From assembly GCA_963760795.1 (NCBI GenBank), contig CAVXEP010000032.1, positions 192,001 to 256,000 of the forward strand: a stretch of 64,000 nt of DNA. The letters are read 5' to 3'. Source of the stretch: an uncultured delta proteobacterium (GTDB taxonomy: Bacteria; Desulfobacterota; Binatia; UBA9968). The position numbers and the translations under genes were made by a program. Under the pieces are notes generated by a model. It did not search any database, had not been told where the DNA came from, and saw only the letters and a program-made list of their open reading frames with translations. Shown here in pieces: positions 53,246-59,371 of the stretch. Each line of letters begins with the position of its first letter. Positions within the stretch are counted from its first letter, which is position 1.

Positions 53246-53474
53246 GCGCGCCAAAAGCCTGGTTAATAACGCCAACATCATTCATAAAGTCGATTAGGTT
53301 GTGTCCCGTAACGCACTCCCCGGGCTTGGTGTGGCGGAGCGAAGCCTGCCATCGCTATCAAGAGCCGAATTGACCAATGCGATAAAGGCGGCCAACTGTC
53401 TTTCCAGGTTTTTTTTCATGTGGTAAGTGTTCTTAAGTGTTGCAGCTTCCGGTCTGTTTTTCAGTCCCGTATTG

Positions 53475-53502
53475 GCACGTGCGAATCGCGCCGGTGGCAT
53501 TT
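53475..53502 (+). repeat. Degenerate tRNA-Arg 3' end (older att remnant)
   Basis: gcacgtgcgaatcgcgccggtggcattt versus tRNA gcgcgttcgaatcgcgccgggggcattt, 25/28 identical. Confidence 0.7.
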
Positions 53503-53543
53503 ACTTTGTTTACGAGTTACCGACAATCGAGGAGATAGTTGCC

Positions 53544-54290
53544 ATGGCGGTGGTGTCGAGCAGCGATTTCGTTAAAGAGATCCAGCAAATGGTGCGGGCC
53601 AAGCACTCCAAGCATCATCCGATTATCGGCATGATCGAAGACGGCAAGCTCGACCGCGAAGCGCTCAAAGGCTTTATCGGCCAGTTTTATTTATTTTTCC
53701 CCAAGCCCTTCCCGAAACCGATCGCGGCGATGTTGGCGCGTTGCCCGGACGATCCCGAGCTCGAAAAAATGTGGATCGAGAACGTCGTCGAAGAGGGCAC
53801 GGGAGAGATCACCGGCACCGATAGCCACAAGGCGCTGTTTATCCGCTTCGCCAAAGCTTGCGGTTACGCCAACAAGGAAGAGCTCGACCGCATCGAGCCG
53901 ACGCCGGAGACCCAGGCGTTTCTCGACTGGCGCGAGCTGTTGATGTCCCAACGCACTTGGCTGGAGCTCTATGCTTGCCAGGGATTCTGTCTCGAAGGCA
54001 CGGCGAACGAGCGCATGACGCGCATCGTCAACGGCCTCACCCAGCATTATGGCTTTACCCGCGAGTCGGAAGATATCCGTTACTGGACGCTGCACATGGG
54101 CGTCGACGAGGAGCATATGAAAGTCGGACCGCTGGCGGTGGAACGTTACGCCGTGACCGAACCGCAGCAAGTGGCGGTGCGCGCCGCGGTGTTGAAAACT
54201 TTAGACCAGTTCTGGTTGGCGTTCGACGGCATTGTCCGGGCCTACGTCGACAAAGATCCGCTCTACGGACGCTGGCGCGGCGGCAAGTAA
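53544..54290 (+). CDS. Heme-oxygenase-like diiron protein (TenA/PqqC/CADD-like)
   Basis: NVVEEGTG..DSH, CLEG, LHMGVDEEH ligand pattern. Confidence 0.75.
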   Translation: MAVVSSSDFVKEIQQMVRAKHSKHHPIIGMIEDGKLDREALKGFIGQFYLFFPKPFPKPIAAMLARCPDDPELEKMWIENVVEEGTGEITGTDSHKALFIRFAKACGYANKEELDRIEPTPETQAFLDWRELLMSQRTWLELYACQGFCLEGTANERMTRIVNGLTQHYGFTRESEDIRYWTLHMGVDEEHMKVGPLAVERYAVTEPQQVAVRAAVLKTLDQFWLAFDGIVRAYVDKDPLYGRWRGGK

Positions 54291-54300
54291 ACAAGGAGAT

Positions 54301-54963
54301 ATGTCTATGGAAATGATCGATTTGTCACGGCTGATTTACGACGGCATGCCGAAGATTCCGATCCTACCGGAAGTCCACGTGACGAAGTTTTTGAGCCTGG
54401 ATAAGGGCCACCCCTTGAACGTCACTGAGTTGTCGATGCCCTGTCATGCTGGTACTCATGTCGACGCGCCGATCCACATAATGCCCAACGGCAAATCTAT
54501 CGACGAGTTACCGGTGGATGCCTTCGTCGGCACCGGCGCGGTGATCAGCGTCAAGAAGAACGGCGGCGAAGAGGTGACGGCAAAAGATTTAGAAGCATCC
54601 GGCGTCGCGGTCAATCGCGGCGATATCCTCATGCTCCATACCGGCTGGGACGTGAAGTTCGACAGCCCGGATTACAATCTGCATCCTTATCTTTCCGTCG
54701 ACGCCGCCGAGTGGATGGTCAAGAAGGGTATCAAGATGTTCGGCATCGACTGCATCACCGTCGACCTGCCGACGCCGCTGCGGCCCAAAGGGTTCGATTT
54801 TCCGGTGCATCGAACCTTGCTCGGCAATAATGTTCTGATCGCCGAGAACGTCACCAACTTGGGTGCGGTGGTCGGCAAGCGCACGCGCATCATGGCGCTG
54901 CCGCTGCGGGTCAAAGGCAGCGACGCCGGCCATGCGCGCATCGTCGCTGAAGTTTTAAATTAG
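54301..54963 (+). CDS. Cyclase / kynurenine formamidase family
   Basis: HAGTHVDAPIH, GIDCITVD, HRTLLG..IAENVTNL. Confidence 0.9.
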   Translation: MSMEMIDLSRLIYDGMPKIPILPEVHVTKFLSLDKGHPLNVTELSMPCHAGTHVDAPIHIMPNGKSIDELPVDAFVGTGAVISVKKNGGEEVTAKDLEASGVAVNRGDILMLHTGWDVKFDSPDYNLHPYLSVDAAEWMVKKGIKMFGIDCITVDLPTPLRPKGFDFPVHRTLLGNNVLIAENVTNLGAVVGKRTRIMALPLRVKGSDAGHARIVAEVLN

Positions 54964-54993
54964 CGGTGTCGCCGGGTTGCTGTGAAGACGATT

Positions 54994-55067
54994 TTCACCA
55001 CGAAGGACACGAAGATCACGAAGTTCGGAAAAGTAAATTATTGAAAACCTTCGTGCCTTCGTGGTGA
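54994..55067. repeat. REP-like palindrome (CACGAAG family), copy 2
   Basis: ttcaccacgaaggacacgaagatcacgaagttcgga...cttcgtgccttcgtggtga. Confidence 0.85.
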
Positions 55068-55127
55068 GCTAAACATTTCTGCATCGCACAAATGTTTCAC
55101 ATCTGGCTGAAGAGCTTGAACTAGACT

Positions 55128-56096
55128 ATGGTAACGACCAAACCTATCAGTGGCATCATTGGCGCCTGTTTGACGCCCTTCGACGTGAATGATCGCGTCG
55201 ATTACAAGGCGCTTGAAAAGGAAATCGAATTTCTTATTCCCGACTGCGACGCGATCACGGTGGCGGCGGTGGAAGCGGCGGAATACACCATGCTGTCGCG
55301 CGACGAGCGCAAGGAAGTGCTCAAAGTCGCCACCGAAATGATCGGCGGCCGGGTGCCGGTGATCTTGGGCTGCTCCAGTCCGGCGCCGCGCGAGGTTATT
55401 GAACTCGCCGAGTATGCCGCTACGGTGAACGGCGACTTCATTCAGGTGCTGATGCCGCTGCGTCCCTGGGGCGGTCAGCCGACCATCGCCGAGCTCATGG
55501 AGTTCTACACCCAAGTGGCTTCGGCTAGTCCTTTGCCGGTTACTTGTTATCACAATCCCGGTCCGGGCGCCGATCCACCTCAGGATGCCTTCGTTAAGAT
55601 CAGCGAGATCGACAACATTCGTTACTTCAAAGAAAGCTCCCGCGACATCACCAAGATTTCGCGTTTGATCGAGCAGATCGAGCTGGCTGGGCGCGGTCAC
55701 TATTTTACCACTATGCAGCCGCTCTTGGTCACGCTCATGCTTGGCGGTTCCGGCGCCACCATGCCGCCGCCGGGGACGCGCATTGGCGCGCAGATCGTCA
55801 AAGCATTTCGCGCCGGCGATTTGGAGACAGCCAGATTTTGGGCGCGCTGCTACGCGTTATTTCCCGGGAAATGGGGCGCCTACGGTTTGCCGCCGGTGAT
55901 GAAGTCGGCGATGAAACATTTCGGTGTTGATCTCGGCCAGCCTTGCCGGCCGTATGCGCCGGTGAGTCCGCGCGACCATGAGCAGATTGGCCAGTTCTTG
56001 CGCCAAGTCGGTCTCATCGGCGAGTCCGGGCCATCGCCACAGGGTTTGCTTGCTGCCGGCGAAAAGCTCCGGCAAGAAGATACCTTCTTAAGATAG
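55128..56096 (+). CDS. DHDPS/NAL family aldolase
   Basis: LTPFD..RVDY, GGRVPVILG, CYHNP, Schiff-base FKESS. Confidence 0.88.
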   Translation: MVTTKPISGIIGACLTPFDVNDRVDYKALEKEIEFLIPDCDAITVAAVEAAEYTMLSRDERKEVLKVATEMIGGRVPVILGCSSPAPREVIELAEYAATVNGDFIQVLMPLRPWGGQPTIAELMEFYTQVASASPLPVTCYHNPGPGADPPQDAFVKISEIDNIRYFKESSRDITKISRLIEQIELAGRGHYFTTMQPLLVTLMLGGSGATMPPPGTRIGAQIVKAFRAGDLETARFWARCYALFPGKWGAYGLPPVMKSAMKHFGVDLGQPCRPYAPVSPRDHEQIGQFLRQVGLIGESGPSPQGLLAAGEKLRQEDTFLR

Positions 56097-56163
56097 TCAA
56101 CGACGCAGCTGCGGCAGTTTTGGATAAGCGAAGCCGGACGGCGTGGCGGAGGTTTGTACAATT

Positions 56164-56349
56164 ATGGAATGGCTTAAAGATCTTTCCGACAAATTGATCA
56201 TCTGGTTTTTGCGCGCGTTATCCGGCTTTGGCAAGGAACTCACCGCCGACGGCAGGCGCGAGCAGCAACTCTGGCGCGAGCAGCGGCTGAGAAATCTCCA
56301 GGGACTGGCGCAACGCTCGAAGCAGCGCTTTGGCGCTCAAGATAAATAA
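56164..56349 (+). CDS. Hypothetical small protein
   Basis: GGAGG RBS; 61 aa; directly upstream of the SQR-like gene. Confidence 0.5.
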   Translation: MEWLKDLSDKLIIWFLRALSGFGKELTADGRREQQLWREQRLRNLQGLAQRSKQRFGAQDK

Positions 56350-56373
56350 ATTCCGCGAAACCAAGAACTCAAC

Positions 56374-57531
56374 ATGCAACTCGTATCGCGGCGAAAAAAG
56401 ATTGTCATTTTAGGCGGCGGCTGCGGCGGCGTGGTGGCGGCGACCCATTTGGGCCGCAAGCTCGGCGCGGATCACGACGTCATTCTAATCGACCGACGCG
56501 CCGATCATATTTTCATGCCGGCGTTTCTGTTCATCATGATCGGCGAGCGCCAACCCCGCGATATCAGCCGGAATTTGAAAGTAATCGAGAAGCGCAACGT
56601 TAGAGTCATTCAGTCGGAGATACTTGGCATCGATCCGATCCGCCAGGAAATTTCTCTGGAAAACGAAAAGATCAATTACGACTACTTGATAACTTCGCTA
56701 GGGTTGCAGACCCGTCCCGACTTGGTTCCCGGCTTTGCTGACGCCTCGCAGCATCCCTGGGAGATGGAATCGGCGCTGCGTTTGCGTGCGAGCCTGGAAT
56801 TGTTTCGCGGTGGCAGGGTAGTCGTTGGTGTGCCGCTTGGACCGTACCGCTGCCCGCCGGCGCCCTATGAGGCGCAGTGGATGCTTGACGGCTATTTCCG
56901 CCAAAAGGGCATCCGCGACCGCGTTCAGATCGATTACTTCACTCGAGAGGCGGAACCAACCGGCGAAGCTCATGATCCGACGGTGTGGATGAATGCCGAA
57001 AGCAAACGGCGCGGCATCAAGCAGCACTTCGAGTTTGTCGTCCGGTCAATCGACCCGGAGAAAAAGGTTGTGCAGGGTTTGTACAATTACAGTGTACCCT
57101 ACGATCTGCTGGTCATGGTGCCGCCGCACCGGCCGGCGCAGGTGCTGCTCGATAGCGGTCTGGCCGAGAGCGAAACCGGTATCCGCGTCGACTACGACAC
57201 GCTGCAAACCAAATGGGACAATGTTTACGCCATCGGCGATTGCGCCGACATGCCGGCGTCGAAAGCCGGCGGCGTTGCGCACCAAGAAGCGGATGTGCTG
57301 GCGCATAATCTCGCCGTCGAGATCACCGGCAAGGGCAGACCGGTGGACCTCTGGCTGCACACCATATGACTACTCGCCTTCGGCGCTGGACGCGCCGCCG
57401 CAAACCGAACGACGTATCCTACCGGCTGGCCGCCCTTCGGCGTCACCGATCCGCGCACCTGGGGGCCGTCTAGGGCGATCTATTGGGCGAAGGTCGGCTT
57501 CGAGAAATGGTGGCTGTGGCGTTATTTTTAA
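56374..57531 (+). CDS. sqr: Sulfide:quinone oxidoreductase-like flavoprotein, probable selenoprotein (U332), 385 aa
   Basis: GGGCGG FAD motif, YRCPPAPYE, VYAIGD. TGA at 57367 continues in frame to LLAFGAGRAA...PSRAIYWAKVGFEKWWLWRYF-TAA. Confidence 0.85.
57381..57397 (+). promoter_or_regulatory. Bacterial SECIS-like hairpin
   Basis: CGGCGC-TGGAC-GCGCCG begins 11 nt after the TGA; G-containing apical loop. Confidence 0.65.
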
Positions 57532-57590
57532 TAGTTAAATGGACTCGTCTGTGGTCGAAACGAATCTGCTTATTGAATAACATCACTTTC

Positions 57591-57668
57591 CACCACGAAG
57601 GCACGAAGGACACGAAGGTTTCGGATGATTAAAATTCCGAATTTCGTGCTCTTCGTGCCTTCGTGGTG
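57591..57668. repeat. REP-like palindrome (CACGAAG family), copy 3
   Basis: caccacgaaggcacgaaggacacgaag...ttcgtgctcttcgtgccttcgtggtg. Confidence 0.85.
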
Positions 57669-57729
57669 AAGACAATCTTTGCTTCGTCGATTGCGGCGTG
57701 ATCACGCTGCTCTATTCACAATCGCCCGC

Positions 57730-59229
57730 TCAGGACCACGCTTGCTCCGCCGCGGCATTCTGCCCGGCGATTTTTCCCGCGACGAAACATTCGGTGATGT
57801 TGCCGGCTTCCAAATAGAGATGGCCGTAGATCGAGCTGATCTCGCCGGCGACGTAGAGGCGCGGGATCGGGCGCTTCATCGGATCGAGCACGCGTTGATT
57901 GACGTCGTGTTCGGGGCCGCCCTGAGTGTTGTTGACGATGGGCCAGGCTTCCATGACGTAGAACGGCCCGGTCTTGATCGGCATCATGGTTTTCGGCGGC
58001 CGTTTGTGGTCCTCGTCCTGGCCTTTGGCGCAGAGTTCGTTCCAGCGTTCCACCGTGGCTCTGAGCACTTTGGGATTGACGTCGATCTGCGCCGCGATGT
58101 CTTCCAGCGAGTTGCCTTTTTTGATCCAGCCTTTGTCGATCTCGGCGAGATTGTCCGCGCTCCAGCTGGCGTCATAACGCTCGTCATTGACGATGGGAAT
58201 GCCGATCGGGCCCAACTTGCGGCCTTCCTCGTCGAAGATCAGATAGCAGGGGATGCGCGGATAGTCCTGAATATCGGCGTCGTAGTATTCCAGCGCCCGG
58301 GTGCCGGTGTCCTGGGGCGCGGGCGGGTACTCGTCCATGAAGCGCTTGCCAGATTTGTCGACGCCGATCCAGATCATCTTGCGGTTCTCGTTTCTCGGTC
58401 CGGCCCAGACATGGCGGATGGCGAAGGGCAGTTCGGCAAACTTGAAGCCGTAGCCGCCGTGAAAGTGCCACATATGCCAGAGGCCGGCGCCGGCTTTCTG
58501 CGCCATCTTCAAGCCGTCGCCGGTGTTGCCGAGATAGACCGGATAGACCGGCTGGGCTTGGAAGTATTGCAGCTTCAGGGCATCGTCGTTTTCGTAGCCG
58601 CCGCAGCACAGAATGACGCCCTTATTCGCCTTGATACGAATCGTCTTGCCGTTATGCTCGGCGACCAGGCCGATCACTTCGCCGTCGCCATTCAAGACCA
58701 ATTCTTTCGCCGGCGTCGAGAGCATCACTTCGATGTTGCGCTGGTTGACGTTGTCGTAGACGACTTTGAACAGCCGCGCGCCGCCGCGCAGTCCTTTGGC
58801 CCAGGGGAATTCCTCGTAGGCTTGGAAGTCTTTGAGCTTGATCGAATCGATCTCGTTGGTGCCGGGAAATGGATAGGTGCCATGGCCGCGGGTCTCGGTC
58901 TTGGACGGCTCGGTGCCGCTGACTTTGGCGAGCTCGGTGACCCAGTCGATCATGCCGACCATCTCTTCGGCCATCTTGCGCAGTATGTCGTCCGGCGTGG
59001 TGCCGTTGCAGGTCCGTTGCAAATATTGAAAAGCGCCTTCGGCGTTATGCGCGAAGGCGACGCCGCCGCCGGAGAGAATCGAGATGCCGCCGGGGTGGGG
59101 CATTTTTTCGATCAATAAAACTTTCGCGCCGGCGTCGTGGGCGGTGATCGCCGCGATGCCACCCGCGGCGCCGTAGCCGACAACGAGCACGTCGACTTCT
59201 TTGTCCCAAACTAAATTCGCTGTTGCCAC
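57730..59229 (-). CDS. FAD_binding_2 flavoprotein (3-ketosteroid dehydrogenase / fumarate reductase-like)
   Basis: DVLVVGYGAAG, GGISILSGG, NTGDG, NTQGG, PIPRLYVAGE; GTG start with GGAGG RBS. Confidence 0.85.
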   Translation of the reverse strand: MATANLVWDKEVDVLVVGYGAAGGIAAITAHDAGAKVLLIEKMPHPGGISILSGGGVAFAHNAEGAFQYLQRTCNGTTPDDILRKMAEEMVGMIDWVTELAKVSGTEPSKTETRGHGTYPFPGTNEIDSIKLKDFQAYEEFPWAKGLRGGARLFKVVYDNVNQRNIEVMLSTPAKELVLNGDGEVIGLVAEHNGKTIRIKANKGVILCCGGYENDDALKLQYFQAQPVYPVYLGNTGDGLKMAQKAGAGLWHMWHFHGGYGFKFAELPFAIRHVWAGPRNENRKMIWIGVDKSGKRFMDEYPPAPQDTGTRALEYYDADIQDYPRIPCYLIFDEEGRKLGPIGIPIVNDERYDASWSADNLAEIDKGWIKKGNSLEDIAAQIDVNPKVLRATVERWNELCAKGQDEDHKRPPKTMMPIKTGPFYVMEAWPIVNNTQGGPEHDVNQRVLDPMKRPIPRLYVAGEISSIYGHLYLEAGNITECFVAGKIAGQNAAAEQAWS

Positions 59230-59257
59230 GATAAATCCTCCGAGGAGTAAAATCTTT

Positions 59258-59371
59258 GTTCCAAGGGTTCCAGCCGTTTCAGCTGTTCCAACCCCCACAT
59301 CTTTCCTCCCCCGCGACGCGGGGGATGAAGGAGGGGGCTTGAACGATTGGAACTATTGAAACGATTGAAAC
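59258..59371. repeat. Composite intergenic palindrome (9-mer arms plus GC hairpin)
   Basis: GTTCCA/GTTTCA 9-bp units, core TCCCCCGCG-a-CGCGGGGGA, then TTGAAC/TGGAAC/TGAAAC units in inverted orientation. Confidence 0.75.

Follow-up and report, generated by a model that had tools for sequence, protein, structure and literature searches.

A probable selenocysteine-containing flavoprotein of the sulfide:quinone oxidoreductase superfamily in one order of uncultured Binatia

Type III sulfide:quinone oxidoreductases (SQRs) couple the oxidation of sulfide to the reduction of quinone, according to the accessible parts of two reports (PMC10205796, PMC9666304), and a selenocysteine (Sec)-containing branch of these enzymes is already represented among curated protein families as NF049943 ('type III SQR, selenoprotein subtype'). 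In the available part of the deep-Sep paper (Xiao & Zhang 2025, PMC12013277), a protein of the NF049943 type from Desulfosediminicola was predicted to be an NAD(P)/FAD-dependent oxidoreductase selenoprotein, and the available excerpt of a 2026 review (PMC13188914) contains a table that lists the family with the motif HxxU, citing the deep-Sep paper. In the present study, a gene at positions 56374 to 57531 was analysed in a stretch of 64,000 nucleotides (hereafter the window) from contig CAVXEP010000032.1 of an uncultured delta proteobacterium (assembly GCA_963760795.1). The gene carries a single in-frame TGA, and translation with this codon read as Sec (U) gives 385 residues ending in FEKWWLWRYF. 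NF049943 is its best NCBIfam match (E 1e-75, 255.2 bits, with the next model at 64 bits), and the HxxU motif is present as HTIU, with Sec in the column of the C-terminal redox cysteine. Thus, this gene is not the first Sec-SQR, as Sec at the same SQR column has already been predicted for NF049943. The original prediction, made from this sequence alone, had stated that no characterised Sec-SQR was known; this holds in that no biochemical characterisation of any Sec-SQR was found in the literature searched, and it overstated the novelty, as NF049943 is both curated and in print as a computational prediction. What the gene would add is a second SQR-type lineage in which Sec occupies this catalytic site.

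The reading of UGA332 as Sec, which we regard as very probable, is settled by two comparative observations, namely that the TGA is fixed at one codon with a true stop 54 codons on in all loci compared, and that synonymous sites are conserved specifically in the stem of a downstream hairpin. First, orthologous loci were compared between this genome and 39 relatives, which share 68-96% identity and represent three families of one order. Codon 332 is TGA, the first stop of the frame, in 40 of 40 loci, and a second stop (TAA, TAG or TGA) follows exactly 54 codons further on, at codon 386. In a wider set, codon 332 was covered by a match in 51 of 60 relatives (49 of 58 when the unpublished genomes G004 and G035 are left out), each with exactly one TGA, and the remaining nine of the 60 had either no orthologue or a match stopping short of codon 332. 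The 53-codon tail beyond the TGA encodes a peptide that is strongly conserved across the 40 loci. In an ungapped codon alignment of 38 sequences (L033 and L035, cut by contig ends, were left out), the ratio of nonsynonymous to synonymous variation (pN/pS) was 0.233 for codons 10-331 vs 0.167 for codons 333-385; because of the latter value, the tail is, on this codon-level measure, judged to evolve as a protein under purifying selection. Taken alone, an open frame of 53 codons in GC-rich DNA is weak evidence for read-through. As a side observation, the orthologue is split into two overlapping matches (e.g. residues 1-322 and 319-385) in the draft genomes G019, G020 and G025, which may reflect a frameshift or faulty assembly; in these genomes, the match that spans codon 332 contains the TGA.

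Second, bacterial Sec insertion sequence (SECIS) elements are recognised by a stem-loop placed shortly 3' of the UGA with a G in the apical loop (bSECISearch and the E. coli fdhF literature), and a structure of this kind follows the TGA in the 40 sequences, with a conserved 6-bp stem, the loop N-G-G-N-C and a distance of 11 nt from the UGA. The RNAalifold consensus of the 40 sequences is the same 6-bp hairpin, and standard pairs fill 99.6% of the 234 pair cells, compared with 17-79% when the 3' arm is slid. Five single changes were observed in the stem, all of them C-to-U opposite G. A stronger signal comes from synonymous positions. Among 67 fourfold sites (codon columns whose first two bases are invariant and fourfold degenerate), third-base variation is lowest at codons 340 (entropy 0), 337 (0.18) and 341 (0.30), against a median of 1.43. 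These are exactly the codons whose third base lies in the stem, whereas all four letters occur at third bases within the loop and immediately 3' of the stem. The chance of drawing those three stem sites of the 67 is 1 in 47,905, a figure that is indicative only, as the sequences are related. A further line of evidence is provided by a natural Cys form of the enzyme (P0027; 385 aa, 71% identical), which has Cys at the U332 column and reads LHTIC-LLAFEPGKAA, compared with GAGRAA in all Sec forms. The stem is not encodable in this protein, because the genetic code for F-E-P-G-K-A-A does not allow the stem letters; therefore, the peptide imposed by the hairpin travels with the UGA. The hairpin proposed in the original prediction is in this way supported by the consensus of 40 sequences and by its frozen synonymous sites.

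Third, the machinery for Sec insertion is present in the same genome. The genes selA (612 bits), selB (410 bits) and selD (379 bits) lie side by side on the minus strand of contig C11 (1948-7514), and a tRNA-Sec scores 76.7 bits, which ARAGORN calls tRNA-SeC with anticodon TCA; all four score above their cut-offs, in an assembly that is an incomplete draft (88.9% complete, 6.2% contamination). The selD gene itself has one in-frame TGA, in the context AG-U-AAK, with a small G-rich-loop hairpin 12 nt after it. Among the relatives, selA is present in 55 of 60, and the five genomes lacking it are 60-93% complete. The TGA was also seen outside genome assemblies, as a contig from a public soil run spans 56856-57408 with two differing letters, none at the TGA. 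This support is weak as independent evidence, because the run in which this DNA is best represented may be the source sample. In one run examined in detail (soil metagenome X1), contigs span the full length of the gene, and the enzyme may therefore bear on sulfur or selenium turnover in that soil. The checks that accompanied the original prediction thus came out in its favour: the TGA is kept in close homologues, TGA alternates with TGY among homologues (in the 71%-identical Cys form and in NF049943-like loci with TGA, TGC and TGT), the sel genes are present, and the codon is unchanged in a separate soil-metagenome contig.

The gene product almost certainly belongs to the SQR superfamily. The read-through product (P0001, with C written for U) matches the Pfam families Pyr_redox_2 (E 6e-20) and FCSD_central. 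Its best sequence match in the Protein Data Bank (PDB) is human SQOR (E 3e-32), followed by the SQR of Acidianus, flavocytochrome c flavoproteins and the SQRs of Aquifex and Acidithiobacillus; SQRs of types I, II and V in the PDB score 58-115 bits. In human SQOR, the redox cysteines are C201 and C379, and a trisulfide is present. In the phmmer alignment, C160 and U332 fall on the two redox cysteines of this enzyme, and the YRCPPAPYE motif named in the original prediction is present around Cys160. With phmmer, 323 representatives were retrieved from the full library at E <= 1e-30, and the best 150 of them were aligned with P0001 and the Cys form P0027. In the resulting 152 sequences, the U332 column holds Cys in 111, 11 end exactly one residue before it, and the others are fragments or carry other residues. 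Neither redox column (160 or 332) varies in alignment A3, for which 80 sequences with Cys at column 332 were selected. The claim that the UGA occupies the second catalytic Cys position is therefore borne out, with U332 on the C-terminal redox Cys of human SQOR, Cys160 on its partner and Cys in 111 of 152 homologues.

The sequences that end before the U332 column include fragments from the gene's own clade, a 57%-identical lineage (P0123) and the distant representatives P0167, P0183 and P0226. As an observation in its own right, P0183 (33% identical), P0226 (30%) and P0123 (57%) all end exactly one residue before the redox-Cys column, which suggests that these lineages may include further unrecognised Sec forms; a metagenome scan with P0183 as the query gave no confirmed locus.

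The predicted structure is consistent with this assignment over the whole length of the read-through product. The AlphaFold2 model, built with 80 homologues, has a mean predicted local distance difference test (pLDDT) score of 95.3. In the tail, strands were modelled at residues 328-337, 340-348 and 358-366 and a helix at 367-384, with pLDDT of 92-98 except for one 10-residue block at 75, and the K..FE..W motif is conserved. The best Foldseek matches are the SQRs of Aquifex, human and Acidithiobacillus, with query-normalised TM-scores of 0.83-0.86 over about 390-410 columns. Judged from the model, a 331-residue product would lose three strands, the terminal helix and one of the two catalytic residues. 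This shortened form is what is stored in databases. The conventional open reading frame (ORF) runs from 56374 to 57369 and encodes 331 aa, as the mechanical ORF list stops at the TGA, and 119 of the 120 best database matches are 327-334 aa long, the other one being the 385-aa Cys form. The two truncated entries that were inspected end at LHTI, and such entries are labelled 'FAD/NAD(P)-binding oxidoreductase' or 'sulfide:quinone oxidoreductase'. The expectation that standard annotation would truncate the gene was thus correct. The mis-annotation is systematic, with the clade stored as 331-residue proteins deprived of one catalytic residue and part of the fold, and the NF049943 exception model would not rescue it (255 vs 525 bits).

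The gene was found in a restricted group of organisms. In a class-wide sample of 250 genomes, it is present in 32 of the 37 genomes of the order, all with one TGA, and outside the order only 2 of 213 genomes have a homologue at E <= 1e-60, both 35% identical and with no stop. A sample of 300 genomes from the phylum contained no orthologue at E <= 1e-80 outside the order. Thus, the clade is confined to one order among the genomes searched. In the source records, truncated proteins that are nearly identical are attributed to Candidatus Binatia or Deltaproteobacteria metagenome-assembled genomes (MAGs).

Herein, we propose a mechanism to describe how the full-length enzyme may be made and may function. 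Upon reaching UGA332, the ribosome would be served by SelB carrying Sec-tRNA(Sec), which would bind the G+C hairpin 11 nt downstream, so that Sec would be inserted and translation would continue for 53 codons to the UAA. The SQR fold would then be completed by the tail, through its three beta strands and C-terminal helix. Sec332, standing in place of the C-terminal redox Cys, would pair with Cys160 beside the flavin in a redox centre bridged either as a selenenylsulfide or as Se-S(n)-S. The most likely reaction would be the oxidation of sulfide, or of a closely related chalcogenide or persulfide, with electrons passing via flavin adenine dinucleotide (FAD) to a membrane quinone. In this scheme, SelB binding, selenium incorporation, the Se-S chemistry, the substrate and the quinone acceptor are inferred. 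Compared with Cys, Sec has a lower pKa, a higher nucleophilicity and a resistance to irreversible over-oxidation. Taken as a whole, the explanation of this gene as a 385-residue, Sec-containing flavoprotein of the SQR superfamily acting as described is considered likely, and a sulfide:quinone activity as its physiological role is favoured with modest confidence.

Several points weigh against this explanation. The 60 nt after the UGA, folded as a single sequence, reach -14.3 kcal/mol (z +0.84), and 160 of 200 shuffled sequences fold at least as well; because the single-sequence hairpin is not distinguishable from shuffles, the case for Sec rests on the comparative data. Compensatory changes on both sides were seen in 0 of 6 stem pairs among the 40 sequences, where the stem columns barely vary and the covariation shuffle control is uninformative, and the closing pair is a G-G mismatch in one sequence. 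No SECIS family was matched by an Rfam scan over 57200-57700 with E up to 10. Contigs from RNA libraries cover 56372-56669, 56719-56980 and 57454-57604; none of them bridges the UGA, carry-over of DNA is possible, and these contigs show neither transcription nor strand. With respect to the family, the score of 255.2 bits lies far below the NF049943 cut-off of 525 bits, and the type III label would come from the best NCBIfam match alone, the trees being built with no reference type III sequences. Finally, the conserved neighbours (the iron enzyme, the cyclase, the dihydrodipicolinate synthase (DHDPS)-family lyase and the small ORF; Table 1) have no evident link to sulfur oxidation, and because of this the physiological substrate is uncertain.

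Table 1. Positions in the window of the selenoprotein gene, its elements and the genes upstream of it
Feature	Position	Strand	Details
Selenoprotein coding sequence (predicted)	56374..57531	+	ATG at 56374, TAA at 57529-57531; 385 aa with U332; SQR-family FAD flavoprotein
UGA, probable Sec codon 332, motif H-T-I-U	57367..57369	+	TGA in 40/40 loci; column is Cys in 111/152 homologues
FAD-binding glycine motif GGGCGG, residues 14-19	56413..56430	+	G14 and G19 invariant (80-sequence alignment); Pyr_redox_2 from residue 9
Cys160 codon (YRCPPAPYE), first redox Cys, presumed partner of Sec332	56851..56853	+	Aligned to the Cys of human SQOR 'vkCagap'; invariant in the 80-sequence alignment
SECIS-like hairpin	57381..57397	+	6-bp G+C stem 57381-57386/57392-57397; 5-nt loop N-G-G-N-C; 11 nt after UGA
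53-codon read-through tail	57370..57528	+	Three beta strands and C-terminal helix modelled (residues 367-384, 57472-57525); pN/pS 0.167
Heme-oxygenase-like/CADD-PqqC-like iron enzyme	53427-54290	+	Pfam and NCBIfam
Putative cyclase/arylformamidase-like	54232-54963	+	Pfam and NCBIfam; 34/40 loci within 1.5-kb flanks
DHDPS-family lyase	55128-56096	+	Pfam and NCBIfam; 40/40 loci within 1.5-kb flanks
Small conserved ORF, ~60 aa	56143..56349	+	25 nt upstream of the selenoprotein gene; tblastn match in 40/40 loci

The in-frame TGA, the 53 further sense codons and the 6-bp hairpin described in the original prediction were all found at the positions listed in Table 1. The selenoprotein gene is the last of five co-oriented genes (53427-57531), and this cluster is a ground for the first alternative, in which Sec is inserted and the enzyme, instead of serving as an SQR for sulfide detoxification or energy conservation, is the redox part of a pathway encoded by the cluster, acting on another thiol, persulfide or selenide substrate or on sulfide arising from the pathway. 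Gene order and strand do not differ among the wide loci compared (5 of 5, covering the three families of the order), all 40 loci have the two nearest genes, and gaps of 47 and 25 nt suggest co-transcription. Among the scanned neighbours there is no rhodanese, persulfide dioxygenase or sulfur carrier, unlike the Cys homologues, of which the two examined (35% identical, from other families) both adjoin ArsR-rhodanese, rhodanese-major facilitator superfamily (MFS), metallo-beta-lactamase-fold and methyltransferase genes. Action on selenide had been suggested as a possibility in the original prediction, and the mammalian SQOR is reported to oxidise selenide in the accessible part of a preprint (bioRxiv 10.1101/2023.04.13.535674). 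The title of PDB entry 3sz0 refers to a selenide complex of the Acidithiobacillus SQR. Nevertheless, the protein retains the two SQR redox residues together with the fold and the C-terminal helix, its nearest Cys homologues have gene neighbourhoods of the sulfide type, and a substrate is not defined by synteny alone, so that this alternative is regarded as possible but rather unlikely. A more specific version, which we hold to be doubtful, is that an always-Sec flavoprotein provides the chalcogen-redox step of an undescribed five-gene pathway, with Sec having arisen independently of the Desulfobaccales-type Sec-SQRs and become fixed across an order of abundant soil bacteria. If this were true, the enzyme may oxidise selenide, or else a persulfide or thiol made by the pathway, and pass the electrons to quinone; the small upstream protein might then be its accessory subunit. 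The conserved core of the small ORF is roughly SD.L...LR..S.FG.ELT..G..EQ..WR.QR.RNL.GL; it matched no Pfam or NCBIfam family and ESM Atlas scores were 0.80 or lower, and its product could be an accessory or regulatory partner.

Two observations concern the region downstream of the gene. A convergent FAD_binding_2 flavoprotein gene (flavocytochrome c/3-ketosteroid dehydrogenase-like) lies at 57730-59298 on the minus strand; it was found in 4 of 40 loci, which reach just 1.5 kb on each side and may not include it, and it is probably outside the conserved cluster. An imperfect palindrome of about 80 nt at 57591-57670, just downstream of the selenoprotein gene, is a dispersed repeat that occurs in at least 40 places in the genome at 86-94% identity, each matching both strands (scores were computed for 40 of 180 candidates). 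The soil-run contigs give it a summed depth of about 100x the depth of the flanking gene and show many different loose ends, and Rfam gave only weak miRNA-like hairpin matches over it. The palindrome looks like a repetitive extragenic palindrome (REP)-like or miniature inverted-repeat transposable element (MITE)-like sequence.

The remaining alternatives deny the insertion of Sec. If the TGA were a real stop, the annotated 331-residue protein would be the product and the downstream frame would be untranslated or a relic. Gene callers do end 119 of the 120 best matches there and the single-sequence hairpin is not significant; against this, a tail of exactly 53 codons has a strongly conserved protein sequence across all 40 loci and the low pN/pS given above, and truncation would remove three strands and the terminal helix of a model with pLDDT of 95, as well as the second redox residue, which is invariant in the selected alignment. 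This makes a real stop very improbable. A TGA produced by an error in sequencing or assembly, or by recent nonsense mutation of a TGC or TGT Cys codon in a pseudogene, would need only a single base change in a draft genome of the completeness and contamination given above, yet the TGA occurs at the same codon in 39 other genomes and in the public soil-run contig, and the sole close Cys form also differs in the peptide that encodes the hairpin, so that an error is scarcely tenable. Lastly, the reading of TGA as an ordinary amino acid such as Trp or Gly, in favour of which there is nothing beyond the in-frame TGA itself, is hardly credible, since in 14 of the 39 loci reaching the gene end it is TGA at codon 386 that truly terminates this gene, which rules out a reassigned code, while conventional ORFs of the window are intact under table 11, selA, selB and the neighbour genes have no internal stops, and a dedicated tRNA-Sec and SelB are present.

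Having preferred the reading of the gene as a Sec-containing member of the SQR superfamily, we compared it with described enzymes. It resembles the Cys-type type III SQRs of Caldivirga maquilingensis and Sulfurimonas denitrificans and the sulfide-induced enzyme of Methylacidiphilum fumariolicum in its presumed subfamily (via NF049943), its size and its putative C-terminal membrane-binding region; it differs from them in that those enzymes use Cys at the Sec position, and the relatedness is indirect, via NF049943. In the available part of the report on Methylacidiphilum (PMC10205796), the SQR gene lies beside TusA/DsrE2-like genes, whereas the present gene has no such neighbours. Human SQOR (type II) and the type I SQRs use two cysteines and are 22-25% identical to the present protein. 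The FCSD_central domain and the fold are shared with FccB, the flavoprotein of flavocytochrome c sulfide dehydrogenase. In contrast to FccB, the Rossmann strand begins at residue 9, which leaves no room for a signal peptide, and a C-terminal helix of the SQR kind was modelled. No cytochrome c gene was present among the neighbours scanned by Pfam. An identity as FccAB, which would call for both signal-peptide room and an adjacent cytochrome c gene, was rejected on these two grounds.

The closest comparison is with the NF049943 proteins themselves. One representative (P0167), which ends one residue before the U332 column, reaches the cut-off of this model (525.3 bits, model positions 1-330 of 406). 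A set of 80 loci related to it (L059-L138) was collected from Desulfobaccales, Syntrophobacterales and similar MAGs, and two were dropped, their match being short of residue 330. In the remaining 78 loci, the codon after the end of P0167 is TGA in 43, TGC in 25 and TGT in 10, and is followed by a conserved tail of 80-98 aa. Within this NF049943-like group, the Sec forms are intermingled with Cys forms in the tree, and some records have two paralogues, one Sec and one Cys, as on a single contig that gives both L076 (TGA) and L113 (TGC). In a tree of 45 rows, the clade of the present gene and the NF049943-like group fall on opposite sides of a branch with 100% support in the Shimodaira-Hasegawa-like approximate likelihood ratio test (SH-aLRT), each among Cys forms. 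A joint clade of the two Sec lineages costs 41.9 log-likelihood units, and the approximately unbiased (AU) test gives p 0.085, i.e. no rejection, for a group that was named after the first tree had been seen. In a tree of 116 rows, in which two 'Sec' rows were inferred from truncation only, no fewer than 7 changes of the Sec/Cys label are required, and well-supported branches force 5 of these. The natural Cys form P0027 is nested inside the clade of the present gene (SH-aLRT 96 in the 116-row tree and 88 in the 45-row tree), which suggests a Sec-to-Cys reversion.

Thus, the present gene and the NF049943 proteins share the superfamily, Sec in the same column after H-x-x (HTIU here and DGHAT-U there), the alternation of Cys and Sec at this column, and truncation by ordinary gene callers. 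They differ in several respects. First, the present protein is only about 33% identical to NF049943 members, and its tail is 53 aa long, compared with 80-98 aa. Second, the NF049943 SECIS has an 8-bp stem and a GGUC loop placed 20 nt after the UGA, whereas a 6-bp stem and an N-G-G-N-C loop at 11 nt are found here; the SECIS elements of the two groups are unrelated in sequence and spacing. Third, the hosts of NF049943 are Thermodesulfobacteriota-type MAGs, whereas the present clade comes from one order named Candidatus Binatia by the sources, and it carries Sec in all genomes searched. On tree topology and element structure, the present Sec lineage is probably independent of the NF049943 lineage. 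Two Sec lineages that have unrelated SECIS elements and are probably independent would argue that selection has repeatedly favoured Sec over Cys at this redox site, and the Cys form P0027, together with the Sec forms of its own clade, provides a ready natural Sec/Cys pair in which the kinetics can be compared.

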